Assembly (NCBI RefSeq): GCF_000143415.4
Contig: NW_003314393.1
Location: 191,175 to 255,174, forward strand
DNA length: 64,000 nt
Origin: Selaginella moellendorffii
Lineage: Eukaryota > Plantae > Lycopodiophyta
Direction of reading: 5' to 3'
In this document: in pieces, positions 3,331 to 50,266 of the stretch
How the letters are laid out: each line of letters begins with the position of its first letter
How positions within the stretch are numbered: the stretch's first letter is position 1
Position numbers and translations under genes: made by a program
Notes under the pieces: generated by a model
What the model was told of the DNA's origin: nothing
What the model saw: only the letters and a program-made list of their open reading frames with translations
Databases searched by the model: none

Positions 3331-4964
3331 TGTAAGCGACTAAATTTTCCATTCTACTTTAGTCACTTAACCACACTTCCGATCACTTGGAGGAGTCTCA
3401 TTCACAACCTCCATAAGTCCCATTCAGGACTTGGGACTTGCTAATCCCAAGAATGGCATCCATGCCACTCAACACTTACACCTGGTCCAAGTGCTCCACG
3501 TGTCCAGTCCCAAGACCGACACCCAAAGGTGCCACTGGCATATCGGCCCGTTACGCTAAGGCCATGCCCATTCACCTTTGCCGCACTAGTGGTCCAATAC
3601 CACTTGCATCACAATCCCGTCTCTCCAAGACTGGACCATCCGTCCACGAGTGGTCATCCTAGATCCACTCCTTAGCATCCTTAGGATGCCCACAGACATG
3701 GGGAATAGCCTTCCCCAATATCCCTTTGTCAGTTCCTACCAAATCCCTATGGCCAACACTGCCACTAGATCAAGGCCCACCGGCCCGATCACTAAGTCCC
3801 ATGGTCCTCTGGGACTTCCACACCATGTGACTGTATCCTTAGTCACTACATTAGAGGACTGTTCCTCCTCCTTTCCCCCATTTGGGACTCCGGGACAACA
3901 TTTCGGAACACCGCGGGCCTACGCAAGCCCCGTGGGTACTCTCCCCACCTTTCGCCTTTAGGTGCTCTAGCCATGGGCTTAGAGCGAGGTTCCGTTGAGC
4001 CACGCCTGGTATCCAAGTAGGTAGTGCCACCCACACTTGGACTGGGAGCATCGGCCAGTCGATCTCCCGGGGGAACTAGAGCCGGCTCTTGAACACTTCA
4101 CCAAGCTACCCCGCTTGTCGGTCTGTGTTCACTCTAGTCTTGGACTTCCCAGTGGGCAGCTCATCACCCAACACTAGGTCCGGCCTTCCTGGGCCAAACT
4201 GGCCTTTCCTGGCCAAACTGGCTCCACTGCAGTCCTCCCCCTACTATACTTTTGGAGCTCACCAAACCCCCCAGGGTCTGGGAGACGAACGCTTTGGGCT
4301 TTCACCCTCTCAGACTCGAACTCCGACTCGGACTCGGACTCGGACTCGGACTCGGGCTCGGGCTCAGTCTCAGCCTCGGCCTCGGTCTCGTTCTCGGTCC
4401 CGATCTCGGTCCCGGTCTCGGTCTTGGTCTCGGTCTCGGTCCCGGTCTCGGTCTCGACTTCGGACTCCATCTCGGACTCCATCTCGGACTCCATCTCGGA
4501 CTCCATCTCGGGTCCATCTCGGACTCCATCTCGGGTCCATCTCGGACTCCATCTCGGGTCCATCTCGGACTCCATCTCGGACTCCATTTCGGGTCCATCT
4601 CGGGTCCACCTCGGACTCCATTTCGGGTCCATCTCAGGTCCACCTCGGACTCCATCTCGGACTCCATCTCGGACTCCAACTCGGGTCCATCTCGGACTCC
4701 ACTTCGGACTCCAACTCGAGTCCATCTCGGACACTTCCACGTGTCATGTGTTGGTCCTTTTGGGTCCCTTTTTGGAGCCTCGCTTTTTGCTCGCTTCGTG
4801 CTCGTTCCTCAAGCACTTCGTTGGGAGTTCCACTCCCGCTCTTGACTTTTCAAGTCGGAGCTTTTGGTCCAAACGTGTTACGCTCGTTTGGCTCTCGCTT
4901 CAGCCACAACCACGTGGCACCCTTTCCGGCTCCACTTTGGGGCCTAGGGATTTTGTGTCTCACA
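3331..4964 (-). mobile_element. Solo LTR (chromovirus-like) with 5-bp TSD ATGGA
   Basis: TG...CA termini. ATGGA at 3326-3330 and 4965-4969. Internal array of 12-bp CTCCATCTCGGA units. Homologous to 7868-9221; the terminus resembles the LTR end of 27459-28606. Confidence 0.9.
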
Positions 4965-7792: not shown

Positions 7793-9965
7793 TTCACCAA
7801 GATTGATTTGAGGAGTGGATATTATCAGATTGCAATGGATGATGTATCTATTTCCAAGATAGCATTTTGTAAGCGACTAATTTTTCTATTCTACTTTAGT
7901 CACTTAACCACACCTCTGACCACTTGGAGGAGTCTCACTAACAACCTCCATAAGTCCTATTCCGGACTTGGGGCTTGTTATCCTCAAAAATGGCATCCAT
8001 GCCACTTAACCTTTGCGCTTGGTCCAAGTGCTCCACGTGTCCGATCCCATGACCGACACCCGACATATTAGCCCGTTACCACCAACATATTAGCCCATTA
8101 CACTAGGCCATGCTCAGTCACCTTGGTCACATCAGTAGTCCAACACCACTTGTATTGTGATCTCGTTTCTCAAAGATTGGGCCATCCGTCCATGAGTGGT
8201 CATCCTAGATTCACTCCTTAACACTCTTTACTCTCCCCGCCTTCTGCCTTTGGGTGCTCTAACCATGGGCTTAGAGTGAGGTTCCATTGAGCCATGCCAG
8301 GTATCCAAGTAGGTAGTGCCACCCATACTTGGACTAGGAGCATCGATTATTCAATCTCCTGAGGGAACTATAGCTGGCCCTTGAACATTTCACCAAGCTA
8401 ACCCACTTGTTGGTCTGTATTCACTCTAGTCTTGGACTTTCGAATGGTTAACCCATCACACAACACCTGGGCATAGCCTTCCTGGGCCAAACTAGCCTTT
8501 TCTAGCCAAATTGGCTCCACTGGTATCCAACCCCCACACTCTCCCTACTATACTTTTGGAACCCCTTGCAGCTCCCCCCCCCCCCGGGGGACGATCGCTT
8601 TGGGCTTTCACCCAACTGCCTATATTAGTATTCGGACTCGGACTCGGACTTAGTCTCGGTCTCAACCTTGGTCTCGGACTTGATCTCAGTCTCGGTCTCA
8701 GTCTCAGTCCCGATTCCATCTCGGACTCCATCTCGAGTTCATCTCAAACTCCATCTCAGACTCCATCTCGGGTCCATCTCGGGTCCATCTCGGACTCCAT
8801 CTTGGGTCCACCTCAGGTCCACCTCAGGTCCACCTCCGGTCCATCTCGGATTCCATCTCGGGTCCACCTCGGGTCCATCTCAGACTCCATCTTGAACTCC
8901 ATTTCGGGTCCATCTCGGGTCCATCTCGGACTCCATCTCAGACTCCATCTCGGGTCCATCTCGGGTCCATCTTAGACTCCATCTCAAACTCTTCTATGTG
9001 TCATGTGTTAGTCCTCTTGTGTCCCTTTTCTAGAGACTCACTTATCACTCACTTCGTGTTTGTTCCTCGAGCACTTCATTGGGAGTTCCACTCCTGCTCT
9101 CAACCTTTCAAGTCGGAGCTTTCAATCTAAATGTGTTACGCTCGTTTGGCTTTTGCTTCAGCCACCACCACGTGGCACCCTTTTGGCTCCACTTTGGGGC
9201 ATAGGGATTTGGTGTTTCACATATTTAACACAAGCTTCAGGCATTTTGAGTTTACAGTTATGCCATTTGGTTTGACGAATGCACCAGCCATATTTACTCG
9301 GTTGATGATGGAGGTATTTACGCATTATCTTCATGAGTTTGTGAAGATTTTCTTAGTCGATATTTTTGTTTTCAACAAGAATATGGAGGAGCATAAGGTG
9401 CATTTATGCAAGGTTCTTTTGTTACTCCATAACAACAAACTTTATATGAAGAAGAGAAAATGCAAGTTTGCAAAGTTAGAGGTGAAATATCTAGGCCATA
9501 TTGTGACATCTAAGGGTGTCAAGACGGATCTAAGGAAGGTAGCTATGGTGGAGAATTAACCTACGCCAACTTCAGTGGCCGAGTTACACATTTTTCTTGG
9601 TATAACTAGTTACTACCAATGTTTCCAGCATAAATTTGTAGAGGTGGCTATTCCTTTGACACGGTTGTTACGCAAGAATGTGCCATTCGAGTGGAAGAAG
9701 CCACAAGAGGAGAGTTTTGTGGTGTTGAAACAATTGTTGAGCGAGGCTCAAATTTTGTGCAATGTTGATCCATCAAAACTTTACGAGGTGACATATGATG
9801 GCAAGTGGTTATGCATTAGGAGGATTTCTTATACAAGAGGGACAATCTATTGCATATGAGAGTCAAATTTTGAATCCTGCAGAACAACATTATTCCACAT
9901 ATGAGCAAGAGTTACTCTCTATTATTCATGCTTTACAGACATGGCAACACTACTTTTATGGTGTG
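7793..9965 (+). mobile_element. Decayed Ty3/gypsy RT-RNase H fragment, interrupted by a solo LTR
   Basis: [13 protein letters not shown]...SKIAF|NTSFRHFEFTVMPFGLTNAPA...; RNase H-like YSTYEQELLSIIHAL; stops and frameshifts. Confidence 0.85.
7868..9221 (-). mobile_element. Solo LTR with TSD CATTT/TATTT
   Basis: TGTAAGCG...TTTCACA. Removing it restores the RT frame. The duplicated arm (near 3082) preserves CATTT. Confidence 0.85.
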
Positions 9966-10172
9966 GTGTCAAACATGGCATGGTTGCCAGTCAGCACAGC
10001 AGCATAGTCAGCACAGCATGCTTGCCAATCAAGATAAAAACTTGTAGTTGCATGACTTTGACAACAGACCATGACTCTGGGGCATCGTACTTCTCTTCGC
10101 ACTTGGCATGAATCTGTCGTCTGATGTATGATCACATGATTCTGAAATGAAACTCTTAAGGTTTTCTTTCTT

Positions 10173-12387
10173 TTGTATAAGATCATGGACATGGAAATTC
10201 TACTGGAGTTCAAGCAAGGCATGTTCCAAAGCAATTCTACCTTTTCTAACTGGCATGAAGGAAGCAAGGATGGGATTTGCAGCTGGAGAGGCATTAGTTG
10301 CAATTCTAAACGCCAAGTAGTGTCCATACATCTATCCTCTGTGGATCTTGATGAAGCCTTGGTGGGAACTCTCACGCCAAGGCTTGGGCAGCTTTCATAT
10401 CTTTCAGAGCTCCATCTAAAATAATGGGGCAAATTCCTACCACCCTCGGAAATTGCTCCTCACTCACAGAGCTCAACTTGAGAGGGAACCAATTGACTGG
10501 CCATATTCCAGCAACATTAGGGCAGCTCCAGAATCTCACTGAGCTCTGGCTATCTGATAATTTCTTGAGCGGGTCTATTCCATCGAGTGTTGGGAACTGC
10601 TCCAAGCTGCGGTTCCTCAGTCTGGAAAACAACACCTTAATGGGCTCTATATCTCCATCGCTGGGTAAGCTCAAGAAATTGGAAAGTTTATCACTTTTTA
10701 CAAACAATTTGGAGGGGCTTATACCAATCACTCTTGGAAACCTTTCGCACCTCACATTTCTAGACATGTCTGACAACCTTCTATATGGCCCATTACCTGG
10801 CTCTTTTGCTGGTCTTCGTAGGCTAAAGTGGTTGGGACTATCGCAAAACTATTTTCTCAACGGATCGATTCCTTCGGATGTTATGGTGGGCATGCCATCT
10901 CTAACGCACCTAGAGCTCCATTACAACAACTTTACAGGAAACATTCCCATGTTTAATGCGTCTTCTCCTGTTGTACTACTTCGCTTGGACGTTAACAGCC
11001 TGACAGGAAGCATTCCGCATTTGATCACAGAGATCAAGGCTCTCCAGCAATTGCACCTCAACAAAAACTATCTAGATGGAAGCATTCCAAAAGGCATTAG
11101 CCAGCTGGATCGTCTTGAGATACTTGACTTGAGTGACAACTATCTCAGAAATGAAGTTCCTCCACTCGACAAATGCACCAATCTTGGCTATCTCGACCTC
11201 CATGGAAACTTGATACGGAGCAAAATGCCAACGTTTGGTGCATGCACTAACCTGGTTTACTTGGATCTCTCAACGAACGAGTTCCAGGGAGAGATTAGCT
11301 CAAGGCTAGGGAATTGCTCCCAGCTCAAGGTTGTCAACTTTGCGCAGAACAATTTCACGGGTGAGGTGCTGCTTGACTTGAGTAACTTGACAAGCTTGGT
11401 CTTCTTTGTCATTTCCAACAACACGTTGAGCGGCACAATTCCAGCAAAAAGCTTGAATTCCACTTATCTCAGAGTCATGGACTATAGTAGGAACCATTTC
11501 ACAGTCAAGAAACTTGCAGCTGGTCAGGAATTATGATATTGTCTTTTGCATACAACAAGCTGTTTGGGCAGATTCCAGATTGCACCACCAATCTCATTTG
11601 GCTCCAAATTCTAGATCTGTCAAACAATAAGCTCACAGGGCAGCTGCCACGCGTGCTTTGGAAGTTTCAAGGTTTCAAGGGCAACACGAGTGGGGATTTG
11701 AATCTTGGCATTTACACAGGGGTAGAGTTGAGCCTGGTCATCATAGTCAACGACGCAAGGATACAGTTTGATCGGACAACGATCGTTGTTGCAAACAACA
11801 TGACTTCATTGGACATCTCAAGCAACTCTCTCGAGGGTGTCATCCCAGAAGAAATTGGGCAACTGGTTGGACTAATGCATCTTAACCTCTCGCACAACCA
11901 GTTCACCGGTGCCATACCTCTCAACCTTTCCAGCTTGAAAAAGCTTCAGTCGCTTGACTTATCCTGGAACATGCTCCAAGGCAGGATCCCAAACGAGTTT
12001 GGGGAATTGCCTTTGTCAGCCTTTAATGTTTCATTCAACAACTTAAGCGGATTGGTCCCAACTGCATACAATTTAAACACTCGGTTTCCACTTGCATTCC
12101 AAGGCAATAAGAACCTTTGTGGGTTTCCATTGTCTCCTTGTGGCTATGCAACAAAGGATCAAGAGCACCCTGCAAGTCACAAAAGTTGGGAGGACTTCCT
12201 CTTCCGTGAGGCTTCAGTGTGGGCATTTGGCTGCGGTGTGTTTATTGGCTTTTGGGTCACATTTTTAGGCATCACGTTCTGGGACAGCCTTCAAAGTTGG
12301 AGGTATAAGCTTCGGGCAAAGGAACATGAGGACGCATCTATTGGCCTCAGCATACCTTCATTTCTTCCTCGTCTTGGCAGTTCTTAA
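10173..12387 (+). pseudogene. LRR receptor-like protein (RLP) pseudogene
   Basis: LRRNT, about 20 LRRs, island domain, GNKNLCG, transmembrane segment VWAFGCGVFIGFWVTFLGITFW and a short tail with no kinase. Frameshifts near 10421 and 11500; no signal peptide evident. Confidence 0.9.
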
Positions 12388-27458: not shown

Positions 27459-28606
27459 TGTAAGGAACCAACTCGCCGAGGTGTCGTAGGCTAAGGGAAC
27501 CCCGAAAGCATGACCAAAATGACTAAGAGTTCATCGGATGGGACCAAGTCAAAGATCGAGTCCAAGACCGACTCTAGGACCGAGTTCGAGATAGAGTCCG
27601 GAATCGAGTCCAAGACCGACTCGGGGACCGAGTTCGAGTCTGAGTTCGAGACCGAGTTCGAGACGGAGTCCGAGATCCGAAATCGGGTCCGAGACCGAGT
27701 CCGAAGTCGAGTCCGAGGTCGGGCCCGAGATCGGGTCCGAGATCGAGTCCGCGATCGAGTCCGAGACCGAATCCGAAGTCGGATCCGAAATCGGATCCGA
27801 GATCGAGCCAGAGACTAAGTCCAAATACTAATACGGGTCAAGGGGTGAAAGCCCAAAGCGTGCGTCCCCCAGGGGGGGGGGGCTGCAGGGGGTTCCAAAA
27901 GTATAGTAGGGATAGTGAGGTCCAGGAACCAGTTTAGAAGGGACTCTCCAGTGGGGCTCCCAAACTGACTTGAGGTTGGGACTGGGACCGAGGGGCCTTG
28001 GGTGGGAGTGAGCATGGACTTGGTTGGTGCCGGAGGGGCCATCCAAGGAAGTGCTCAAGAGCAGCTCCCACTCCCGAAAGGGAAACCGATTGCGGTGCTC
28101 CCGGCTCATGTGGAGTGGTGCCCCACTTGAGTACCATGCGGCTCATTGGTCCTCGCCCTTCCTAGGGGCTTGGGCCTTCCTTCGGGATGGAAGTGGGGGG
28201 CGAGGGGTACCCATGCCGGGCCGTTAGGCCACGGTGTTTCGTACCGGCGTCCCGAAGCAAGTGTTGCACTCAAGACTTGGGATTTAGAGGGTCCCATGAT
28301 CAAGTCTTGTGGTACCAAGGGATGTTAGGAACCTGGAAGCTTGGTGTGCTTGGCTGCTTGTGCTTGCGGGGAGTGAAGCCGAACCTTAAGTCCAGTCTAA
28401 CCCGGGGAGGGGGATTGGGAGTGATTTGGGAATCCGTGGAAGGATGGCTAACGCTCCATTGCTTGTGCAGTGAGTAGCTGAAACCAAGTAGGAGCTGGTA
28501 CCATAGGCAATAACCTTGGCAAGGGAACTTAGCAAAAGCCAAGGCAGTGTTGGACGGATAGACGAGGTAAGCTGGCAAATTGGAAAGGAAAAATTTGTGG
28601 CTTACA
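27459..28606 (+). repeat. 5' LTR
   Basis: TGTAAGG...GGCTTACA; contains a GAGTCC/GAGACC microrepeat array. Confidence 0.95.
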
Positions 28607-28609
28607 ATT

Positions 28610-28621
28610 TGGTATCGGAGC
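28610..28621 (+). promoter_or_regulatory. Primer binding site (tRNA-iMet)
   Basis: TGGTATCGGAGC, one mismatch to TGGTATCAGAGC, 3 nt after the LTR. Confidence 0.9.
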
Positions 28622-28665
28622 CTTTATCTCAGTTCTAGCGAAGGATAGAGGCGGATTGCTGGGAG

Positions 28666-31600
28666 ATGGCAAGGGCAGGGCGTAAGCGAACCCAGGCGGA
28701 GACGGAACCTCCGCCGGAGCTGGAGCCTCCGGTTGAACAAGAGGCTATGGATGAGGAATCCTTGCATGAGGAGGACTCCAGTGAGGAAACTTCCAAACAG
28801 GAGTCCGGTGGCGAGGTTCGGTCGTCCAAGGCTCGATTGGACGTCCTAGAAGGACAGTTGGCACAGACCAATGCCCTGCTGGAGACTCTCGTACGCAAGT
28901 TAAAGCGTGACGAGAAGCGGAAGAAAAAGCGAAAGACTGCGGAGGCTGGCAGCGCAGAAGGTGCGGACCCTTCGGCAGGGACTGAGGCAAAACCAGACAA
29001 GGTCGAACAGACCGAAGTGGAACCAGTCCCTCAAGCAGTTCCCAAGTACAAACCAAAGCCCCCACCGGTGTTCAAGGGAGTGAACGACTATAAGGTTGTG
29101 GAGGATTGGTTTTACGATATGGAGGACTACTTCCGAGCGTTGCGGTTACCGAGCTCGGAGAAGGTCCCATGTGCAAAACCATACTTGGCAGATAATGCCA
29201 AGTCTTGGTGGAGAACAACGGAGGCCAACGAAGGACTGGTGGCCACCTGGGACATGATGAAGGCGAGGATCCGCGCGACATACGTTCCTCCGAATGCCAC
29301 TCTGCATCTGAGAGATGAGTTGAGTAGGCTGAAGCAAACTGGAACCATCCAGGAATATGTGAATGGGTTCATGGCAAAGAGGATACTTGTCACGGACATG
29401 GGGGATATGGATGCGTTCCATGCCTTTATATCAGGTTTGCAAACCTGGGCTCGCGGTGAGGTGATGCGCTGGAACCCGACCAACTACAAGGAAGCGTTGG
29501 ATGCGGCCATCAAGGTGCATTTCAACGATAACCTGCGAAAGGGGAACACGACGGGGTCGGGATCCACGTTTCACAAAGGGGCCAAACCGAGGGGAACATA
29601 TAGCAAGGGGAAATTCAAGAAGAGTTTCTCTAAGAATGAGTCCTCGGGGTTCCGGAAAGGCAAATCCGGTGGCCAGCGAGCGAGTACGTGGGGAAGTCAA
29701 GCGAAAAAAGACAAACCCACGGATAAGAAGGTCAAGTCGTATAGCAGCGTGGGCAACAACGTATGCTACAACTGCGGCGAAGCGGGACACTTCTCAAGGG
29801 AATGTCCCTACCCGAAGAAGGCCAGAGCCAATATGGCCATCAAGTCGGGTGAAGTCCAAACTGAGGTATGTGATCCAGTCCCTAACTCAAAGTTACTCAT
29901 TACACGAGCAACTTTGGTAGAGAGTCGTTCGCGACATCTACTAGCCCTCCGAGGGAAGCTCGGAGGTAGCTTTGTTAAGATCCTTATTGACACGGGTGCT
30001 TCGGATAATTTTGTGGCTGCAGACATAGTCCGGCAAGCCGGACTAACGGTGCAGCGGCTAGGCGAACCAAGGACTATAGAGTTTGTTCAAGGTAGCCAAA
30101 GCACCGATGAGGTACTTCGACAAGCGAGAGTCGAAGTGGGGACATGGAAAGTGGACATGGATTTCACCGTCTTGGACATGGCGGGATTTGACGTGATCTT
30201 CGGAATGGATTGGTTTAATCGGTTCGTGGTGGCCCTGCATGGACAAGGTAGGAACCTTGTGGTATTGGCGAATGCCCAAGGAAGAAGATCTAGGGTGGAG
30301 GCCCAGGATCTAAAGGTAGGGCAAAGCAAGGCCAAAGAGTCATGCTTAAACCTGGTGTCCACGAGAGGACAACTCACTAAAGGAACTAAGGCAGCCTTTT
30401 TGTGCTTACTCTCGGTGAAGAGTGACAAAAAGACAAGAACGGAAGAAGTACCTTTAGTGATCCAGCAGGTGCTGGACCAATTCCAGGATACCATGCCAGA
30501 GGAGCTACCGGCGGGGTTGCCCCCCGCACGACCGATAGAACATAAGATTGAGCTAGTCGAGGGTGCTGAGGCGGTGGTTCGTCCACCCTATCGATTGAAC
30601 GAAAAAGAACTCAAGGAGCTCAAGAGCCAACTAGAAGAGTTGGTGGGCAAAGGGTATGTTAGGTTGAGCAAGTCGCCGTATGGGGCGCCGGTGCTATTTG
30701 TGAAAAAGAAAGATGGATCTATGCGCATGTGCATAGACTACCGGTTGCTCAACAAGTATACCAAGAAGAACAAGTACCCTTTGCCAAGGATCGAGGACCT
30801 GTTCGATAGGTTGGGAAAGGCAAAATACTTCTCGAGGATTGACCTAAGGTCAGGATACTACCAGATCAGGGTAGCTGAGGAAGATGTCGAGAAGACAACC
30901 TGTCGAACGAGGTATGGGAGCTTTGAGTTTTTGGTGATGCCCTTTGGGCTGTGCAATGCGCCGGCAACGTTTTCGGCGTTGATGAACCACATCTTTGTAC
31001 CCTATCTGGATCGCTTCGTGGTCGTCTATATTGACGACATCCTGATCTATAGCGAGACGCTAGAGGAGCATGCCGAACACTTGGCGAAGGTGTTTGAGAA
31101 ACTAAGGGAACACAAACTGTATGCTAAAGAGAGCAAATGTGACTTTGCTCAACAAAAGGTAAAGTTTCTCGGGCATGTGGTGGGCCAGGACGGGCTCAAG
31201 GTGGACCCGGAGAAAGTCCAAGCGATCCAGGAATGGGAACGACCATCGAACGTACATGAGTTGAGGGCGTTCCTGGGGCTATGCAACTACTATCGAAAGT
31301 TTATCAGACACTATTCGAGAGTAGCCCTGCCCTTAACGGACCAAACAGGAAAAGGGAAGATGGTATGGACAGCGGAATGCGAGGCGGCATTCGTCCACCT
31401 CAAAGGGAAGTTGAGGAAGGCTTCGGTGTTGGCATTACCAGACTTTGGTAAGGACTTTGAGGTAGACACGGATGCTTCGGACTTTGCGTTGGGCGCAGTT
31501 TTGAAGCAAGACAACCATCCAGTAGCGTTCTTCTCGAAGAAGCTGGACAAGGCTCAACGGAAGTGGCCTGCCCACGAGAAGGAATTGTTTGCGGTGGTCA

Positions 31601-33438
31601 AGGCGCTCAAGGAGTGGCGACACTACCTTGGGAGACACTTCAAGGTTTACACGGACAATGTGGCAACGAAACACTTCTTGTCACAGCCCGACCTAAGGGG
31701 AAAACAAGGTCGGTGGGCCAATGCTTTGGCCGAGTTTGATTGCGAGATCCTGTACAAGCCTGGGAAGAGCAACATCGTGGCAGATGCGCTCAGTCGAAAA
31801 GCGAGCTTGAAGTTGGCGATATCTAGCGCGACAGCAACCTTTTGGGACGATGTGCGGACCGCATACGAGAGTGATGGTCTAGCACAAGAAGTGTTGCTGA
31901 GGAATCTGGAGGCGCGGGAAGCTCACCAGAGAGGTGAGCTGCCAACGGAAGAGAAAACGGGCTATGCGGAACGCAACGGACTCATATATTACAAGCAAAC
32001 GAGGGTGTATGTTCCAGAAGGGGAACTAAGGAAGGTAGCCTTGGAAGAGTGTCATGACGGACCTCTCGCGGGACACGGCGGAGTGCCCAAGACGATGGGC
32101 TTACTCAAAAGGAAGTATCACTGGCCAGATATGGCTAAGGACGTCCAAGACTATGTAAAGACATGCCCAACATGTCAGCAGGTCAAAGCCGTGACGAAGG
32201 CTAGTGGGGGCTTGTTGCAAAGCATCCCCATTCCAGATCGTCCGTGGAAATGTCTCACGATGGACTTCATCACGGGACTACCCCCAAGCGAGGGGTTCGA
32301 TGCGATATTCGTGGTGGTGGACCGATTTTCAAAGATGGCACATTTCATACCCACCACGACGGATGTGGATGCGGAAGGTGTGGCGAAGCTGTTCTTCGAA
32401 CAAGTGGTTCGAGTGCGGGGAAGGCCGGAAGAGATTATCTCAGATCGAGATAAGATCTTCACCAGTAGGTTCTGGAGGACACTCCTAGAACAGTATCGCA
32501 CCAAGTTGAAATTCAGCACGGCCTATCACCCACAGACAGGTAATGGGTATTGAGTCAAGATTGATGGCACTAACACTTCTTGACAGACGGACAAACGGAA
32601 AGGGTGAATAGGCAGCTGGAGGATTATTTGCGATGCTATGTCTCGGGAGACCAGACCGACTGGGTAAGTCATTTGGGACTTGCGGAAATGTGTTATAACA
32701 ACTCACCACATTCGAGCATCGGGGTGAGTCCATGGGAAGTCATCAATGGGCGAGCTATTGAAGGTCCTGTGGAACTCGGCGTGGCCGAGTATCATGGAGA
32801 GTTACCCGCAGTGGAGGCATTCACGGCGGAAAGACTCAACATTTGGAATCTAGTGAGGGATTCCTTGGAACGGGCTCAACAAAGGCAAACTAAGTACGCG
32901 AACCAAAAGCGTCGAGATGTGGAGTTCCAAGCTGGGGAGAAGGTGTGGCTGAACACCAAGAACCTCAGGCTACCAAGTGGGATCAGCCGGAAGTTGACCC
33001 AAAGGTAAAAATGCATGTATTCCTGTAAATGAATTGATCTTGAGTTCCTTAAGCAGGTTCGCGGGGCCTTACGAGATTGAGGCTCGAATCGGTAAAGTGG
33101 CTTACCGTCTCCGACTTCCTCGAGAGATGGGGAAGATGCATCCCGTGTTCCACGTGAACTTACTCAAGCCGTATTTTGAGGATCCGCTTCGCAAGGACCA
33201 AGTAAGACCTTTACCTGAGGTTATCCAAGGGGAGGAGGAATACGAAGTCGAGGCCATCCTCAATGCGCGCAAGAGCAAGCGACAAGGACGCGAGGTGAGA
33301 GAGTTCCATGTGAAGTGGAAAGGATTTCCACACTGCGAAGCAACATGGGAACCGGAGGAGAACCTAGCGAACGCGCGAGATCTAGTGGAGGAATTTCTGC
33401 ATGGCAGAACTCTATGTACTTATGCAAAGTTCAATTAA
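28666..33438 (+). CDS. Gag-Pol polyprotein with chromodomain; exons 28666-32539, 32587-33004, 33057-33438
   Basis: CCHC knuckle [14 protein letters not shown], protease LIDTGA, RT YIDD, RNase H TDAS, integrase HHCC + MDF, GPY/F motif and chromodomain EYEVEAIL...VKWKG...TWEPEENL. Two GT-AG introns restore conserved motifs. Confidence 0.92.
32540..32586 (+). other. 47-nt spliceosomal intron in the integrase core
   Basis: GTAATG...CACTAAC...GACAG; removal restores HPQTDGQTER. Confidence 0.88.
33005..33056 (+). other. 52-nt spliceosomal intron in the integrase GPY/F region
   Basis: GTAAAA...AAGCAG, AT-rich; removal restores [12 protein letters not shown]. Confidence 0.88.
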
Positions 33439-33845
33439 AAGTATCAATTTGAGAAGTTGAGCAATGGCATATGTTGGGACCCGAAGGCGCGCCGAAGGTG
33501 AGCTAATTAGCATGGGTTAGCTAGGTCGACCAGGCGTAGGGAGCTACGCCCGACTCCCTGCGGGGATGTCGAATCCGTAGACGTATTCTACGGAGGTTGG
33601 GTTTGAGTCCCAACCCCCTAGTAAAGCAAGGCTGGGTTCAAGTCCCGACCCCATACTAGGGCGTGGTGAGGGGTGGAGTATAGGGACACCTATATTCCGT
33701 TGTCATGAGCTCTTGGCCGGGGAGGCTAACTTAGGCACACCGCTAAGTGGGGGGATGCCCCCGGAGACATGGTCAACAAGTTGTAGGATAAAAAAAAAAG
33801 AGACGTTCGATGTGGGCATCGAACTTCTTCTATGGGTGGTGGAGT

Positions 33846-34993
33846 TGTAAGGAACCAACTCGCCGAGGTGTCGTAGGCTAAGGGAACCCCGAAAGCATGA
33901 CCAAAATGACAAAGAGTTCATCGGATGGGACCAAGTCAAAGATCGAGTCCAAGACCGACTCTAGGACCGAGTTCGAGATAGAGTCCGGAATCGAGTCCAA
34001 GACCGACTCGGGGACCGAGTTCGAGTCCGAGTTCGAGACCGAGTTCGAGACGGAGTCCGAGATCCGAAATCGGGTCCGAGACCGAGTCCGAAGTCGAGTC
34101 CGAGGTCGGGCCCGAGATCGGGTCCGAGATCGAGTCCGCGATCGAGTCCGAGACCGAATCCGAAGTCGGATCCGAAATCGGATCCGAGATCGAGCCAGAG
34201 ACTAAGTCCAAATACTAATACGGGTCAAGGGGTGAAAGCCCAAAGCGTGCGTCCCCCAGGGGGGGGGGGCTGCAGGGGGTTCCAAAAGTATAGTAGGGAT
34301 AGTGAGGTCCAGGAACCAGTTTAGAAGGGACTCTCCAGTGGGGCTCCCAAACTGACTTGAGGTTGGGACTGGGACCGAGGGGCCTTGGGTGGGAGTGAGC
34401 ATGGACTTGGTTGGTGCCGGAGGGGCCATCCAAGGAAGTGCTCAAGAGCAGCTCCCACTCCCGAAAGGGAAACCGATTGCGGTGCTCCCGGCTCATGTGG
34501 AGTGGTGCCCCACTTGAGTACCATGCGGCTCATTGGTCCTCGCCCTTCCTAGGGGCTTGGGCCTTCCTTCGGGATGGAAGTGGGGGGCGAGAGGTACCCA
34601 TGCCGGGCCGTTAGGCCACGGTGTTTCGCCCCGGCGTCCCGAAGCAAGTGTTGCACTCAAGACTTGGGATTTAGAGGGTCCCATGATCAAGTCTTGTGGT
34701 ACCAAGGGATGTTAGGAACCTGGAAGCTTGGTGTGCTTGGCTGCTTGTGCTTGCGGGGAGTGTAGCCGAACCTTAAGTCCAGTCTAACCCGGGGAGGGGG
34801 ATTGGGAGTGATTTGGGAATCCGTGGAAGGATGGCTAACGCTCCATTGCTTGTGCAGTGAGTAGCTGAAACCAAGTAGGAGCTGGTACCATAGGCGAGAA
34901 CCTTGGCAAGGGAACTTAGCAAAAGCCAAGGCAGTGTTGGACGGATAGACGAGGTAAGCTGGCAAATTGGAAAGGAAAAATTTGTGGCTTACA
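33846..34993 (+). repeat. 3' LTR
   Basis: Near-identical to 27459-28606 and the same length. Confidence 0.95.
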
Positions 34994-36693: not shown

Positions 36694-39600
36694 TCAGACT
36701 GTTATTTTTTGCCTCCAACGCCTATACAATAATCTTGGAATTTCATCACTCTCCACACTATCAGGATTTAAACCCAATAGTAATGCCATCTCTTCTCTAA
36801 TACATCCACGCTCATGTTCAGTGGTCGAAGAACCCATCCGGTTGAGCAGATTATGGAGATGCGGATAGTGCTTGGCTAGACAATATACATGCCATAAATG
36901 ATGACTGGTGTCTGTCCGATCAAATGGCTTCTGATATACCGTTCCATCTGCCATTTGGTTGATTTCTGCAGCCACCTCCTGGACTGGCCGGTTCTCTATC
37001 ACCATCGCTTCAAGCCGTTTTGCAAGGTCCCCCAGAACATACAGTTTCTTCTCCCTAGTTTCCATACTGCAAGAGATGGGGTGCACTGCATATGTGTGCG
37101 TGTTCGCTGCAGTTTTAATCGGCGAGTCATCGATGATGAGGATTTCACTTGACCTAGCAGTCCGGTTCATCACTACAGCCTTTGGCTTGACGAAGATGGG
37201 CTTGCTACCCCTCACATGGACCATAGTCAAGCAATCCTCCTGCGTTAGGAGAAAGTCAAATGGTAATATTACTCGCGTCTGATCGTGCATCATCTGTAGC
37301 AACGTTAATGCATTGTGGCACATCATGGATGTCCAAACTCCCAATTGCAAATTGAACCCGGCCCTCTGTTTTAAGTGTCGCATGGTCATTATTAGATCCC
37401 GCAGTTTCTCCCGTGTGATTAATGTGAATCTGTCTCTTTTGACCAACTTGCGACCGCAGGCTTTGGAGGGTGCAGTGACATTCGAGGACGAGCCACGCTC
37501 ATGGGAGAAAAGGACACCGTTCAGATCAAAAACGATACAGTACTTTCGCCGTGACTCTGAAATGAAATGCGTCAGCATAAAAAATGGTACAAGTCAATTT
37601 TACCATCTACAATATTAGCGAATGGTGCTCCCGATGGTCGTTCAGAGGGTTTTGGTCGAGGAAACGTGAAGGGCGGAAATACTCTCCTCTGCAATGTGGG
37701 GTCAATCGCATCCGATGGCGTGTGGGCACATGCCATTTCAGCTGTAGACTCTGGTACAACTGGCTCAACAGTGGCATGGGGTGGTTCCGATGGCGTGTGA
37801 TCACACGCCATTTCAGCTGGTGCCTCCGTTGGCAAAGTGGACATGACCGAACAGGCAGCAGGGGCGGTGTAGGGAGGTTCCAACGGCGCGTAGTCAGACG
37901 ATTGGGCACACGTTGGAAATGAGGATACGACCGGCTCGGCGGCTGGGGCGGCCTCATGCGGGTCCAATGGCGCCTGGTCACCGTCAGTTGGATACGTGGA
38001 CAAGATTGACTCAGTGGTATGGGCAGCATCAAGTGGAGCGTGGTCAGCTTGCTTGGCGTTGATATGGATAGTAGCCTCCACCAGCTCTGATGACTCTTGC
38101 AGGCAAGTAGAGTCCACTGGCGGATCCATATGCATGTCCAAATATCTCCCTTCGATTGAGATGGTATCCTCCCGTGCTACTAAAAACAAACTCATTAGCA
38201 CATTGAATCGACTATATTGTATTTACCATCAACTGCTATTGAGGAACTAGGACTGATATCACTTGGGCGCACTGCTGATTCTGAAGGATTGGACATACGT
38301 TTCGACCCTTGCTTGGCACTATCCTTCCTCGACACTAAAGGCTAGAGTTTGTATCTTAATTCAACTGAATAATCTCTACTTACCATTTCTTCTGCGACCT
38401 ACATGGACAATGTTAGAAATGGTAAAAGGTTAGGAATGGATGTACTATTATTTACCTGATGGTTTGTCTTGTATGACCTTCCTCCGCTGCTCTTTGGCCA
38501 CCTCAGGCTGGCCATCGTCGTCATCATCGTCATCGTCGTTATTGTGATCGTCACCATTGTGAGGACCATCCAAGTCCTCTTCGTCCTCCTCTTCTTCATC
38601 CTCCTCTTCTTCGTCCTCCTCTTCTTTGTCCTCCTCTTCGTCCTTCTGCTCTTCCTGCTCATTATCTTTCTCTGGCTCCTCATCCCCCTCTTGCATTTCT
38701 TCCATAGGCTGCTCAGGCTGGATGGCTTGTTTTTCCAGGACCATCTTGGGAAAATCATCTGGCCGAGTCTCCATCTCAAAATACAAGACATCCATAGCCT
38801 GTTTTAGTGCGTGACCTAGGACCGTATCCTCACCCGACTGTCTTAACATGGTTTTTGCACGTTCTTGCACCCTTCGAAGACGACGAGATGAGAAAAACCT
38901 GGCCCTGACTTGAAAAGCATCCCTCATCCATTGTACCTCTCCATTGAGATTGGGGAAGGGGAGTCTGCCATAGGAATCTGAGTCAGAAGGTGGTGACTGG
39001 CTCCTTTCACTCAGCCCTTGATCTGCAATGAATGGCATGAGCACACACACCATAACCGCGAGGCATTACCTATCATCTTTTCGTTGCCCTTCTTCCTTTT
39101 TGAATCAAACGCCTCTGATCCCGACGACTGTCCAACGTGCTTTCGCTTTTTATGACCACTGTCAGTTTGAGCTTGGCTGGTGCTTGCCTGTTTTGCCTTT
39201 GAAGAAGTGTCTCCTGCAAGGAATGGCATGAGACCACACGCCATTGCAAATATAATTTGTACCTCCTTTTTTCCTATTGCTTGTCTGTTTGTCCTTCTTC
39301 GACGTGCCACCAGTGCGCTTTTCAGTCCTCGTGTCTGAATATTCACAACGATCTATAATCAAAATGGCGTGAGGCCTCACGTGACCTTACCTTGTGCAGG
39401 TTGTGAGCTCGGCCTAACATCAGTAGCTGTTAACGCCGTTTCAGCATCTGGGGGTGGCCACGCTCCTGCATACAGAGCTTGTGAGATAACATTTAAACTT
39501 AAATTGCGTACTCACACGGTTCGTAGAGAAGATACTATTTTTCTTTGGCAACTGTAATTATATGCTCCATTGAAGTCACCTCTTCAATGGAGTTTGTCAC

Positions 39601-43722: not shown

Positions 43723-46700
43723 ATGGCCTTCAGGGTTAGGGAAAAGGTTTACATTTTGAATGGTGGGAAGAGAGTTGCAAAAGGGACCCTTGTGTCTATG
43801 GATCGGAACTTTGTTATACACTGTCAAAGGCTTGGGGAAGGCAATGCTACTGTATCAGTAGAGACTGTCTTCGATGGGAATGTGGTCGCTATTGAACGAG
43901 GAGAGATGGTCGTCGGGGTAAATGTTGTTGTTGCCTTAAAAAATCTTCAGAAGAAAGCAGATGTTGGGGACAGCGCAAGTGCGACGCATGTTCCCTCCGT
44001 GGATCTTAAGAACCGTGCTACATGGATTCAGGCAAAGGTGTTTCTAAACAACCCCGAGGGGAAGGTGGTAGCTGAGGGCTTAGCCACAGTTGTCGATCCA
44101 AGAGATGCGGTTGCTAATCAAGAATTGGGCTGGGATGATATTGGAGTTGCGATTTTAGAGGTTGTTGACACAGAAGAAAACAGTCTGACTATTGGAAGCA
44201 TTGTGCGGTGGAAATTGAGGCACTTAGTGTTTGAGAATGTGAAGGATTCACAATCAAACACCACTACAACTGATGACAGAACATCTATTCATGGGAAAAG
44301 AAAGTACACCTTCCTAAAGCGCAGCCAAAGGGATCTGAGCAACGAACCGAAAAGGCAGAAAATGGCGATGGAGGTTTGAATGGTCTCGACAGTTGCTTGT
44401 TGCAAGAGGAGGTGCTGTCAACATGCTGATTGGGATGCTATTGAAGAGGAGAGAGCAAGATACAAGACATTGTCCTGGAAGGCAGCTCGCAATTTTGTGT
44501 ATGAGGCATTACGGTCATCTGTTAATGCTTCAGAACATCAGGTGGGGGGCATGGTCTTCCAGAGGGGTTTGGTCTGCACGAAGGCATGGAGAATCATTTA
44601 TGGAGTCCCTCGAACCACATTCTACAGAATCAAAACTGAGTTCGAGGAACAAAGGGTTCAACAGGCAGTCCATGGGAACGACGGTACGCACAAAACCAGG
44701 GGTCATGTTGTATATGGAGAGGCAATCTTCAAGAGGTTTGTCGAGACATGTAGTGAGCAGCAACCACATAAAACCCGCCTCTTGGAAAATGGAACACGAG
44801 ACACCCAACGAGTTCTCCCTTCCATGTATACCAAGGGGGCCATATTGGAAGATGTGAATCGGGAACTCCAGAGTAATGGCTACAGGAAGCTGAGCCAATC
44901 TAGATTTAGTAGATTGTGGAGCAACAGGTTCAGGGATGTGAGTATAGGAAAGTACTCCAGCTTTTCAAAGTGTGACGAGTGCACTGCTATCAAAATGGCT
45001 TTGTCGAAGAATTCTTGCAGCGCTCAAGAGCGAGAGACGTTGGTTAGAAGGCGGCTCGACCACAACATTGAACAGAGAAGCTGCAGAACTGCATATTATC
45101 ATAACAGGATTCTCTCCATGGAGAGACCTGACTCTTACCTCTGCATCATCCACGACAAAATGGACCAGAAAAAGACGTGCTTACCTCGACTCAATCCTGC
45201 CCCCAAGGCAATCTCTTCATCCATGCAGCTGCCTGTGTCTTTGTTTGGCATAATCGCTCATGGGCATGGTGCCCAGAACTATGGGAACTTCTTTGTACCT
45301 CTATGGGGTGGCGGGGGTGCAAACATGATGATTGCGTCCCTAGCAAAACACTTAAGGTCTCTGCAAAGTGCGCAAACTGAGTTGAACGGCCAACCCTTGC
45401 ATAAGGCCCTTGTCGATCGAACCCCATACAGGGTTCAGCTGGAGGAGGAGCAAAGGCTTGCAGTATCGCATGGGGCCCCATGCCATCCCAGTGAATATGT
45501 TGGCCGTCAGATTGTAGGGTTATCACGTGAGGCCTCATGCCATTCCGACGAGGCTGGTCGCCCGGTGAATGCACAGCCTCATCCAAACGAAGCAGAATCT
45601 CAAGGAAGTTCTTGCGGCCGATGTGGCCTTCCACCCCATCTTCTGCTCCAAACAGACAATGCTGGCAGTGAGAACAAAAACATGTACGTCTTCGCGTACT
45701 TGGCGATGCTTGTTGCCAAAGGCATATTTGAAACGATTACACTTGGCTTTCTCATGGTTGGGCACACTCATGAAGACGTCGATGCCATGTTCAGTCACCT
45801 GGCAGAGTCCCTCCAGCAATCCAATGTCCTCACCCTCCCACAACTCTACGATGAATTCCAAAATTGCATCAAAGGCACTGTTGAAGCTGCACTTCTGACA
45901 GAGGTTCCAGACTTTAAGGGGTTTGTAAGAGGCTACATCAGGGACGGATCCGAAACGCTGATTGGCCACTCCAAGCCTCTTCAGTTTCATTTCAGCATGT
46001 GTGACGGTGCTCCAGTGATGAGGTACAAGATGAGAGAATGGGACACAGTGTGGCTGCCAGTGGACGGCATTGAACTCTTCAAGAGAGATCCCATAACTAG
46101 GGAACCTATGATTCCTCAGGGTTCCCCACGGCCGATGCACCCGGATGGACTCAAAGACCAGGAAAGTATAGTGGCCGGGATTAGACAGCATATTGCCTTC
46201 TGGAAGAGGGGGTTGGTGTTTGGTGGAGAATCCTATTTTCAGAGGTGCAAGCCTTTGCTCGAATACTGGGAGAAGATTATATCTGCTATCCAAAATGGGC
46301 CAGTTGTATATGAAGAATTGGAAGAGTCCTTTTGGCCAGAACCCAGAGCACCAGATAGTAGCGGAACAATGTCCTCTGGAAATGCAGTGACAGATAACGA
46401 TGTTGAGGATCACTATTGTGGGCCGAGGAACAAGAAGCCGGATTCAGCATTCAATCCAGTACAGGTCTGCAAAGGAATGGTCGTGCTTGTCAGACCCAGT
46501 AATAAAAAACAAATGATATGGGTGGGGCGCTGCATCACTGATGCAGAGGAGGACGTGGAAACTAACTCCTTCAATGTAACTGTGGAGTGGTTCAAGCCAA
46601 GTTCTGGATATACGAAGGATTGCCTAGAAAAGAGATGGGTGCTGAATCCAAGGGATCCCAGCATGAGCATATCGGTGGATAATGTTGTGCATGGTTGGAT

Positions 46701-46864
46701 GCGAAAGCAGAGTGCCACCATCACCTTGCCAGACCATGCAAGAGATGCAGCAAGAACATTCATAACCCGGGTTCAAGGTGAGATTCATGAATATTCCTTT
46801 ACTAAGTTTCTAATGTATTTTATTTCAAGGTGAACAATCCGAATCTGAATCAGAGGAGGCGTGA
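43723..46864 (+). pseudogene. Sola-like DDD transposase with an in-frame TGA at 44377-44379 and a last intron at 46778-46829
   Basis: CCKRRC, CTKAW, FSKCDEC, IIHDKMDQKK, LQTDNAGSENKN and FLMVGHTHEDVDAMF. ORFs 43723-44379 and 44380-46833 abut in the same frame across one stop. Confidence 0.85.
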
Positions 46865-48418
46865 TGGCATGTGGCCTTACGCCATTCCTAGGTGAGATGA
46901 TATAAATAACAAGTATAAATTCTTAGTTGTTCTAGCAAATCTTACTTAAAGTTCAAGGTGAACAAGCCGAATATGAATTCATCGGATTGTTATAACAAAT
47001 TGCGAGGTGATGGCATGAGGCGATACGCCATTTGAGAGTGGTAGCCATTCCTATATGAGGTGAGTGAAGTATTTATTAGAAATACCTCATTCAATTGTGC
47101 ACTTCTAAGTCTTGGTCCACTTAGTACTGTTTGCATGTTTTTATTTTAATTCTTTCTCTAAAATGTTATTTAGCATGTGGCTTCATGCCATTGCTCTCCA
47201 CAATCATGCATTGAATTTCTATCCTTGCATAATACTTCTCCATATATATAGCATGTGTGCACATGTGATATGGTTCATTAGGCCTGATATAGTGTGTGAG
47301 GTAAAACAAAGATGATGTGACATATGCATTTACCAATCACACGTGCATAAATCTAATAATATGGCGTGTGGTCCATATTAATGGCACATAAACCCATATT
47401 GTGGGCTTACGTGCTTTATGTACCATCATTCCCTTGCAGCGTGTGTGTTGGTTTCCTTTTATAACACAACGAACTCCATATTTTAGGGTGAAGAGCGTTC
47501 TCATGGCAAGCACAAAATCTGTAAGTGAGGCAGAAAAGGAGACGGAGAAGGAGATAGGTGAAGATGTAGAATATATAAGTCTTCCAAACTCCCCGTACTA
47601 TACTCCAGGTGATCATTTTTCTGAACAAACAGCAACATTAACAACTATCGAGAACGCCCCAGAAACGTCAAAGACAACAATCCAAAGCAAAACAACTGAC
47701 CCGGAGAAGGATGATAGTACCGCTGAGAGTACCAAAAAGGAGGTGTCCACTAGCACTTAGGCTTATAATGGCGTGTGCCCTCATGCCATTTACTTGATCA
47801 CCAAATACCTTTTTCCCTTTGCACTAGTATATCTTAATACTGGTTTGAGAAATAGAATGGCATGTGCCCTCAGGCCTTTTACTAAATCACCTTTGAAAGA
47901 AATGCAAGCCTCTATGTCGTAAAAAAAAGGTACTAGAGAAATTCCTTAATAATATGAATGTTATTTAGTTTCATGAAAATACACTAAGGGTCAAATGAGT
48001 TAAATGACTTCTCCAGACTAGCAATGCCTCTTGCTACACCTTCACAATTAGATTCGTTAGAAAAAGATAACATTGAATAATATCTAAATGTTCTCACCAT
48101 TAAGTTATATGTCTGGCTAATAGGAATGACGTTCATCTTGGAAAGCTCACCACACGCTCAATGAACAAACAAATAGTGTGTGCGCGCATGCCATCGCTCT
48201 TCTTTAGCTTCAGATTCGGCTTGTTCACCTTGACAATGAGATTTATTATACAACCAGATGGACTCAGTCTGGACATAAAGTCACCGCGCTAGTCACCATG
48301 CCCCAGATATGTCTAGCCCCTGGACAAAAAACATATAATTTCACGTCATTTTCAAATACTTGAAAATTTGTACCTAGTCCCATTTTACTGAATAAATCCC
48401 ACTTTAACAAAATAGAGC

Positions 48419-50266
48419 ATCTTGCTAAAAACAAGATTATCGTCTAACAAAATCTCCACAAACTCATGAAGATAAAGCCCAAATACCGCCGTCATCAACC
48501 AAGTAAATGTGGCTGATGCATTCATCAAACCAAACGGCATAACTGTAAACTCAAAATGTCCGAAGCTTGTATTGAATGCCATCTTAGAGATAGATGCATC
48601 ATCCATTGGAATCTGATGATATCCACTCCTCAGATCAATCTTGGTAAACACTCGTGCTTCACCAAGCTTGTCCAGGATATCATCCACACATGGCATCGGC
48701 ATCTTGTCCTTCATTGTCTTCTTGTTTAAAGTGTGGTAGTCAATACACATCCATATTGAACCGTCCTTCTTCTTCACAAGCAAGACTAGAGCACCAAACG
48801 GAGACTTACTTAGCTGAATAAATCCAAACTCAAGTAACTCCTTGACTTGTCGTTGAACTTCTTGCTCCTCTGCATAACTTAACCGAAATGGATGCCGGTA
48901 AATTGGCCACGTCCTCAGCTCCAATGTAATCCCATGCTCCACACCTCGTAATGGAGGCAACCTATGAGGAAGTTCCTGTGGAAAAACATCAGAAAACTCA
49001 TCTAGTACATCCCGTACTGCTGCTTCTCCCCCATACGTGCCTTGGTCCCCCAAGTCATGAACAAACAGCAAGTAATTCGAAAGTGCTTTTCCATTACGAC
49101 AAGCCCGCTTCAAAGATGTAGCAGAGAGCATAACAATTGGTGGTTGAACGCCCTTGCCAAACCACACATCTTTAACGCTATTATACTCTAGCGAGATACA
49201 CTTAATACTCCACTTTATCTCGGAATCCACCTTCACCAACCATGGCATCCCAAGAATGAGATCCACACGATGGATATCCGCGAGATAAAAGGTCTCCACA
49301 AGTGTGGTTTTGCCAACCAACACTTCCAACCCCTCGACATAAGCATCGAAATGTTGAGTAGAGGTAATTGCACCTTCCACTGTGTGTGGAAGAACTCCGC
49401 ATGTGACTAGGCCATGCTCCGCAAGAAACTTTGCCGAAACAAAGTTGTCATCGCTCCCACTATCCAGTAAAATCCGCACTGGATCGCCACGGAACACGCC
49501 CTCCAGCATTAAAGCTGATTCACGCATATCCTTAAGCTCCATCTTGTTCCACACAAAGTTGAGCTGACGAGCAACGATCAAAAGTCGCTTCCTCCGACCG
49601 GAATGGTCGTTCTCCTCATCCTCACATTGCAAAGTTTGCAACTTTTTAGTATCTGACTTACCGTGAGAAGAAGATTGGCCATTCTTCTTGTCTTGCTGCT
49701 TGTTCTTCAACTGTGGACAATCAACTTTATAGTGTCCAAGTTCACCACAATGATGACAACTCTGTCTATAATTCTTCACAAAGAACTTCTGCTTCTTGGA
49801 CCCCTTTGCATCTAAAGTAGTGCTACCCCGTCCAGCCTCGAGTGCCTCAATATGCCCATGCATGGTATCCATCATGCCATGCATCTCGTCTTGCATCTCT
49901 TGTTGATTTTGATTAAGATCTCGCAGTTCATGAACCACATCTTGAATGGTCCAAATCTCCGCAGCTTCGTCGGCACCATCATCGGCACCACCATCGACAA
50001 TAGGATTCCAGTGTTCAACTTGGTCGGCCATCGGAACCAACTCCTCTAATACCAATGTTATGATCTAGCGCAAAAAGACATGCTACGCCACCTCTTGAGG
50101 TTCCTCACCACCCAACCACCCCCAAGCTACCTCAAAAGCTCCACTGCGCCGCCGCTCCACTATGAGCCCTAGGGTAGGTTAAGTCCCCCACCCTATCATG
50201 CCTTAATATACCCTTGAGCCTCCCTTTGACCGATGTTGACCATGTAGTCAAAGCTGGTGCCTAACA
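48419..50266 (-). mobile_element. Truncated gypsy element: 5' LTR 50056-50266, PBS, internally deleted gag, PR, partial RT
   Basis: CHHCGELGHYKVDC, LLDSGS, IDLRSGYHQI and LLDD. The RT is cut exactly at the TIR at 48418. Gag capsid is missing relative to the copy at 1-356. Confidence 0.9.

Follow-up and report, generated by a model that had tools for sequence, protein, structure and literature searches.

An LTR retrotransposon of 7535 nt in Selaginella moellendorffii (27459–34993, forward strand, of the 64,000-nt stretch of DNA analysed here, hereafter the window) contains a 157-nt intron directly behind gag (29866–30022), and its family likely sets the ratio of Gag to Pol by removing this intron optionally. 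Judged from the reading frames, splicing would leave a Gag-only frame of 401 aa, and retention would give Gag-Pol; that this choice sets the ratio is argued by analogy with the Copia elements BARE1 and EVD. The mechanism by which single-ORF plant Gypsy elements reach an excess of Gag is largely open, and splicing is established for Copia elements (BARE1, EVD, and copia). A chromovirus case with exact junctions points to convergence on Copia's solution.

Structure and identity of the element

This retrotransposon is an intact and young member of the Ty3/Gypsy chromoviruses. It is bounded by two LTRs of 1148 nt each (27459–28606 and 33846–34993, both on the forward strand like all features of the element given below), the 5' LTR having TG..CA ends and an 11-G run, and a 5-nt target-site duplication is located just before the 5' and just after the 3' LTR. 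Eight mismatches between the two LTRs, together with the intact target-site duplication, indicate a recent insertion. A 13-nt primer-binding site (PBS; 28610–28622) was recognized in the sequence, which we take to be of the tRNA-Met type. This assignment is based on the description of the element SM1-Galahad, for which a PBS of the tRNA-Met type is given (PMC3350952). The TG..CA LTR pair, the PBS, and the 5-bp target-site duplication are those of a Ty3/Gypsy chromovirus, and the same applies to the domain order identified with Pfam, i.e., Gag-PR-RT-RH-IN with a C-terminal chromodomain. The gag region (28666–29865; 400 codons) comprises a capsid domain and a CCHC zinc knuckle (Pfam Retrotrans_gag, Ty3_capsid, and zf-CCHC). 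The rest of the protease, reverse transcriptase (RT), RNase H, the integrase zinc finger, and the first part of the integrase core were assigned by Pfam to 30023–32539, and a Tf2-type SH3 domain and a group-I chromodomain to the last pol exon (33057–33438). Read without splicing, a single ORF of 1295 aa extends from the ATG at 28666 to a stop at 32551–32553 and covers Gag, zinc knuckle, protease, RT, RNase H, and most of the integrase core. The remaining integrase and the chromodomain are encoded by two further frames downstream.

These features fit the published SM1-Galahad, a name that is based here on description and host. In line with this host, the protein of a gene adjacent to the element shows 100% identity to one of S. 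moellendorffii. In the accessible part of its description (PMC3350952), SM1-Galahad comes from the same host species and has a size of about 7.5 kb (7535 nt here), LTRs of 1076/1146 (1148 nt here), a poly-G of 11–25 (11 here), and, as here, a 13-bp PBS. Its single ORF of 3885 bp/1295 aa is exactly equal to ours, and its short downstream ORFs measure 316 and 309 bp (318 and 309 bp here), the last one encoding a group-I chromodomain (PMC3350952). The only size mismatches are those of ORF2 (318 vs. 316 bp) and of LTR length, by 2 nt. As far as the accessible text goes, SM1-Galahad has hundreds of genomic copies, the integrase exons were read as separate short ORFs, and no intact copy was found, whereas both LTRs and the target-site duplication are intact in the present copy; the main text contains zero mentions of introns or splicing (PMC3350952). 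The ORFs for integrase and chromodomain that were described as separate for SM1-Galahad in 2012 are resolved here as exons, which is also a warning that ORF-based annotation misreads such intron-bearing elements as broken.

All four introns, each with GT..AG ends, are present in the young insertion. Intron 1 (28567–28632; 66 nt) has its donor in the LTR and its acceptor 34 nt upstream of the gag ATG, and its removal deletes the LTR end and the entire PBS. Intron 2 is the 157-nt intron behind gag. Intron 3 (32540–32586; 47 nt) lies inside the integrase core motif; without its removal, the frame stops at 32551–32553, and the conserved glutamate of the motif is located downstream of it. Intron 4 (33005–33056; 52 nt) is located upstream of the part encoding the SH3-like domain and the chromodomain. 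If only introns 3 and 4 are removed, a Gag-Pol frame of 1557 aa results, which is colinear with relatives at both joints (18 rows aligned); many relatives are continuous ORFs of about 1500–1560 aa, the nearest of them with 52–56% identity. A complete integrase with chromodomain is thus predicted only after removal of introns 3 and 4. The A+T content of the short introns amounts to 0.60–0.67.

Apart from the introns, the LTRs contain 12-nt tandem repeats (27526–27850 and 33913–34236) with open Ser/Arg/Glu-rich frames. Repeats similar to these are also present in other elements of the window (4292–4796 and 8614–9019).

Splice joints in the sequencing data

Eight of 23 available sequencing runs were examined, four of which (X1–X4) are probable RNA with coverage near the end of gag. 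X1 and X2 belong to one study (P1), X3 to a second, and X4 to a third (P3); all four are low-depth contigs from which rare variants have been dropped, and their RNA nature is guessed. The DNA-like run X8 is deep (1694 contigs; summed depth 230–1800), is filed under another organism label, and is likewise of a guessed kind. Furthermore, in the raw data of three RNA runs (X14–X16; 9.2 million reads each), 10, 2, and 0 reads matched the window, none of them at the donor site of intron 2.

The joint of intron 1 was present in X1, X2, and X4 (studies P1 and P3) and absent from X8. Intron 3 was spliced in X1, X2, and one raw RNA read of X14, and intron 4 in X1 and X2 (both P1), while in X3, introns 1 and 3 remain unspliced in contigs that span them. 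For intron 2, the joint 29865/30023 was found in X1 at a depth of 7.73 with 255 letters on the short side, and in X3, i.e., in another study, at a depth of 4.67 with a short side of 28 letters, which is below the 31-letter bridging mark. Firm support for this joint is one contig in one run (X1). One contig of X2 begins precisely at the acceptor of intron 2; the joint itself is listed neither in X2 nor in X4, which shows the joint of intron 1, and it is absent from the deep run X8. Bin depths fit zero coverage inside intron 2 in X1 (3.14 vs. 3.15) and X2 (2.30 vs. 2.30), and neither of these runs contains a contig retaining the intron, despite pol coverage at equal or higher depth. In X3, depth within intron 2 was above that of the spliced contig (4.33 vs. 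1.60). This extra coverage and the unspliced contigs may represent genome RNA or DNA, and a signal for retention of intron 2 was detected in X3 only, with this same ambiguity of source. A non-canonical joint in X4 (29960/30073; depth 2.4) was rejected, since it probably reflects a diverged copy or an artefact.

With X1–X4 being RNA by guess and the DNA-like control X8 carrying another organism label, the joints might stem from DNA, namely from a retroposed copy that lacks introns and is carried by some plants, and not from current splicing. We consider this highly improbable: X8 contains none of the four GT..AG joints (0/4), though non-canonical joints at depth 2–3 are listed there, and the raw read with intron 3 spliced originates from a recorded RNA run (X14). 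A copy without intron 1 would moreover have no PBS or LTR end, and even a retroposed copy would be a record of splicing at 30022.

Identity between the spliced copies and the copy at 27459–34993 amounts to about 96% (in X1, 14/315, 32/765, and 64/1748 letters differ), so that the joints speak for the family and not for this locus. Among 40 of the 139 variants, the spliced copy of X1 shows 38 codon changes relative to the window copy, of which 32 are synonymous and 6 non-synonymous with 0 stops; the synonymous share expected for random transitions is 35%. Purifying selection acts on the spliced copy, and the ratio of 32/38 without any stop implies that two coding-competent lineages about 4% apart have all four introns in common.

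Regarding the ends of the transcripts, probable RNA contigs start within the LTR at 27932 (X3) and 27991 (X2). Between 27932 and 28665, eight ATGs with short frames are located upstream of the gag ATG, none of them within intron 1. At the other end, the region 33400–33450 has an A+T content of 0.70 compared to about 0.44 around it and carries an AATTAAA at the pol stop (33433). Contigs of X1 and X2 end at 33385 and 33395, just before this A+T-rich stretch, a weak hint from a single study. An internal poly(A) site near 33433 is possible; mRNAs would then lack the polypurine tract and the 3' LTR.

The intron at the gag–protease border

In the preliminary description, a 55-nt intron (29866–29920) had been proposed as a splice switch at the end of gag. 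The underlying letters are present, comprising GAG|GTATGT at 29866, CTAAC at 29882–29886, TAG ending at 29920 (55 nt), and an AG ending at 29922, use of which would preserve the frame (57 nt). No stop interrupts the stretch in the Gag-Pol frame, and cutting out 55 nt would give RVVRDIY and a stop at 29942–29944. The principle of the switch agrees with our data, as gag and pol form one frame of 1295 aa that gives Gag-Pol without frameshift, and splicing from 29866 gives a Gag-only frame. The same holds for the donor, which is used in the joint 29865/30023 of X1 and, weakly, of X3, and which is the only supported part of the 55-nt candidate. The other parts were not borne out. Instead of the proposed joints 29865/29921 and 29865/29923, neither of which was found in the low-depth contigs of the eight runs (four with probable-RNA coverage near the site), the observed joint lies at 30023 and defines an intron of 157 nt. 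The branch A of the suggested CTAAC is just 20 nt away from the donor. In the 157-nt intron, by contrast, TTGAC is located at −33 and TGCAG forms the acceptor. Judged from this joint, Gag would not acquire the anticipated end TERVVRDIY; the observed joint adds one codon, which is followed by a stop at 30026–30028 on the window copy and results in a Gag of 401 aa.

The signal of the 55-nt stretch is somewhat more than chance. Its A+T content (0.58 vs. 0.48 for the ORF) is matched by 4.2% of overlapping 55-nt windows, and when the codons of the ORF were shuffled 2000 times, 3.75% of the shuffled sequences contained a pattern of donor, CTRAC, and YAG, which had been defined with the site already in view. 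Conceivably, the donor at 29866 is in addition joined behind the AG at 29920 (Gag only) or 29922 (in-frame Gag-Pol without retention), as a minor or extra route: the A+T content, in the top 4.2%, comes near that of the short introns, the CTAAC is perfect, and contigs lose rare forms. We nonetheless regard such use as very unlikely, with no corresponding joint in eight runs, a branch A close to the donor, and TAG and GAG as acceptors compared to TGCAG at 30022. For the 57-nt variant in particular, which is unlikely to serve as a bypass for Gag-Pol, no read support was obtained, and the distance from the zinc knuckle to the protease Asp would drop from 61 to 42 aa. Among 120 relatives examined, 33 were measurable and have 50–97 aa (median 62), so the linker would be shorter than in 33/33 closer relatives, although more distant Gypsy proteins come down to about 30–48 aa. 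The 19 residues lost align with a conserved hydrophobic motif of the relatives, but their deletion costs no more profile score than nearby ones (81.4 bits vs. 72.8–80.6 bits for nearby 19-aa deletions; 88.9 bits unspliced), and the segment was therefore not singled out by this test. The only close matches of a representative search were two short decayed fragments (P0001, 75%; P0031, 66%), of which P0031 is colinear across the 55-nt stretch and too decayed to judge the donor; in a metagenome scan, the best 80 of 134 loci reached a DNA similarity of 64–67% at best, in RT only, which is uninformative for splice sites.

The 157-nt intron (3n+1) is itself open in the Gag-Pol frame and encodes the linker and the N-terminus of the protease including the catalytic Asp (codon 29989–29991), so that a protease requires its retention. 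Since the catalytic Asp resides in intron 2 and the integrase is split by introns 3 and 4, a working Pol requires that intron 2 is kept and introns 3 and 4 are removed. This arrangement is that of BARE1/EVD-type elements, in which a GT..AG intron is placed where the protease begins and its removal leads to a stop right after gag. The spliced contig of X1 continues to 30785, at least 760 nt past the joint, with pol covered at equal depth; contigs cannot show RNA ends. A search for a Gag-only protein of 220–700 aa returned no match among 3610 candidates in a protein collection.

The splicing of intron 2 could also be adventitious or favoured by the host, i.e., sites would be used by default, most transcripts would be a dead end (decay, no protease), and nothing would be gained in terms of Gag:Pol. 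A stop far upstream of two junctions, as in the fully spliced RNA, is a usual trigger of decay. For EVD, decay triggered by an early stop is discussed, and fully spliced Copia elements are known in Arabidopsis, according to the accessible part of the study (PMC5580714). Such a dead end would agree with the lack of contigs retaining intron 2 in X1 and X2, with the very low RNA level (10, 2, and 0 reads in 9.2 million each), and with the exon-like A+T content of 0.49 in the 3' two thirds of the intron. However, the donor directly follows the zinc knuckle and the stop follows one codon later, which leaves Gag whole; purifying selection acts on the spliced copy; BARE1 and EVD share the design; and among the four AG|GTRWG donors of the ORF, only the one at 29866 has a joint. 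We therefore judge dead-end splicing to be unlikely and favour optional removal of intron 2 as the means of balancing Gag and Pol.

A donor near gag was also noticed in a second, distant Gypsy element of the window (48385–50064, reverse strand; about 35% identical). A perfect G|GTAAGT is located there at 49661, 18 codons past the zinc knuckle, and trial acceptors 98 and 202 nt downstream would shift the frame into a stop after 10 and 17 codons, respectively.

Probable sorting of transcripts and comparison with known systems

It is probable that splicing divides a single primary transcript among three pools, namely Gag mRNA, Gag-Pol mRNA, and genome RNA that stays unspliced. Fully spliced RNA would be translated into Gag, which is supported by the joints. 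RNA that keeps intron 2 and loses introns 3 and 4 would give Gag-Pol; this pool is deduced from necessity and was not seen in the contigs, which cannot phase introns. Unspliced RNA would be the packaged genome, consistent with the intron-bearing new copy and perhaps with X3. As intron 1 excises the PBS, spliced mRNAs could not be primed for reverse transcription, and new copies would inherit all introns. Retrotransposed copies are classically recognized by their lost introns. This family has nonetheless preserved introns whose removal its integrase requires, and an intron across the PBS would explain their survival, including the retention of all four introns by two lineages about 4% apart and under purifying selection. 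Taken further, an active LTR retrotransposon may have turned into an intron-containing gene, with obligatory integrase introns, sorting by splicing state alone, and a PBS-excising intron as a lock that allows only unspliced RNA to be copied, a proposal that we put forward tentatively and to which we assign slightly less than an even chance.

In foamy viruses, the major donor is located in R, upstream of the PBS, which yields spliced RNAs without PBS. As proposed for the element described here, their spliced mRNAs keep enzyme expression apart from genome RNA; as retroviruses, however, they obtain Pol and not Gag from spliced RNA, and the accessible text describes no small integrase introns (PMC7828637).

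The closest parallels are found among Copia elements. BARE1 of barley (Ty1/Copia) has an optional 104-nt GT..AG intron at the start of the protease, with a stop three residues past Gag, and shares with our element a single Gag-Pol ORF, a short GT..AG intron at this position, and a stop shortly after gag (PMC3735527). Its near full-length Gag-only RNA and its separate RNA pools for translation and replication are likewise comparable to what we propose here (PMC3735527). In contrast, BARE1 has one intron and relies on promoter choice and a missing R to keep its translated RNA out of replication (PMC3735527), whereas the Gypsy element described here has four introns, two of them obligatory in the integrase and one removing the PBS. 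EVD/ATCOPIA93 of Arabidopsis produces shGAG from a protease-centred intron, the splicing of which leads to a stop just past the junction and the retention of which gives Gag-Pol (PMC5580714). It differs from our element in being Copia. In EVD, splicing is coupled to early termination near the start of the integrase (PMC5580714); the X1 contig, which extends well beyond the joint, argues against such coupling here, within the limits of contigs. No such conserved splicing was seen in Arabidopsis Ty3/Gypsy elements, as stated in the accessible part of the EVD study (PMC5580714). The element described here works like BARE1 and EVD but stands outside their group, its domain order being that of Gypsy and not of Copia.

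Partly spliced transcripts are also known from plant Ty3/Gypsy elements, which applies to Ogre and CRR (PMC6317226, PMC3735527). According to the available portions of these papers, the intron of Ogre lies between protease and RT, and its splicing gives the long polyprotein, a logic opposite to that proposed here, while splicing in CRR removes RT, unlike here (PMC6317226, PMC3735527). A 2025 review considers plant LTR elements to be generally without introns and, in its accessible text, names Ogre and EVD as exceptions (PMC12786077). In our literature search, we encountered neither Galahad elements with introns nor a chromovirus with a Gag intron centred on the protease, and likewise no LTR retrotransposon with an intron that excises the PBS, though subscription papers and supplements may hold such cases. 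The accessible texts on lotus, sunflower (Copia only), Tcn1, Diaspora (predicted LTR donors only), and retrovirus packaging contained no such case.

Further features were noticed elsewhere in the window. An inverted duplication of 2310 nt (621–2930 and 9881–12190) is 100% complementary and contains a leucine-rich-repeat receptor-like gene; as one arm adjoins an N gap, this could be either a very recent duplication or an assembly artefact. An ORF of 299 aa on the reverse strand (36694–37593) has a weak match to NIF phosphatase (E 6e-6), and an intact ORF of 817 aa on the forward strand (44380–46833) appears transposase-like by eye.
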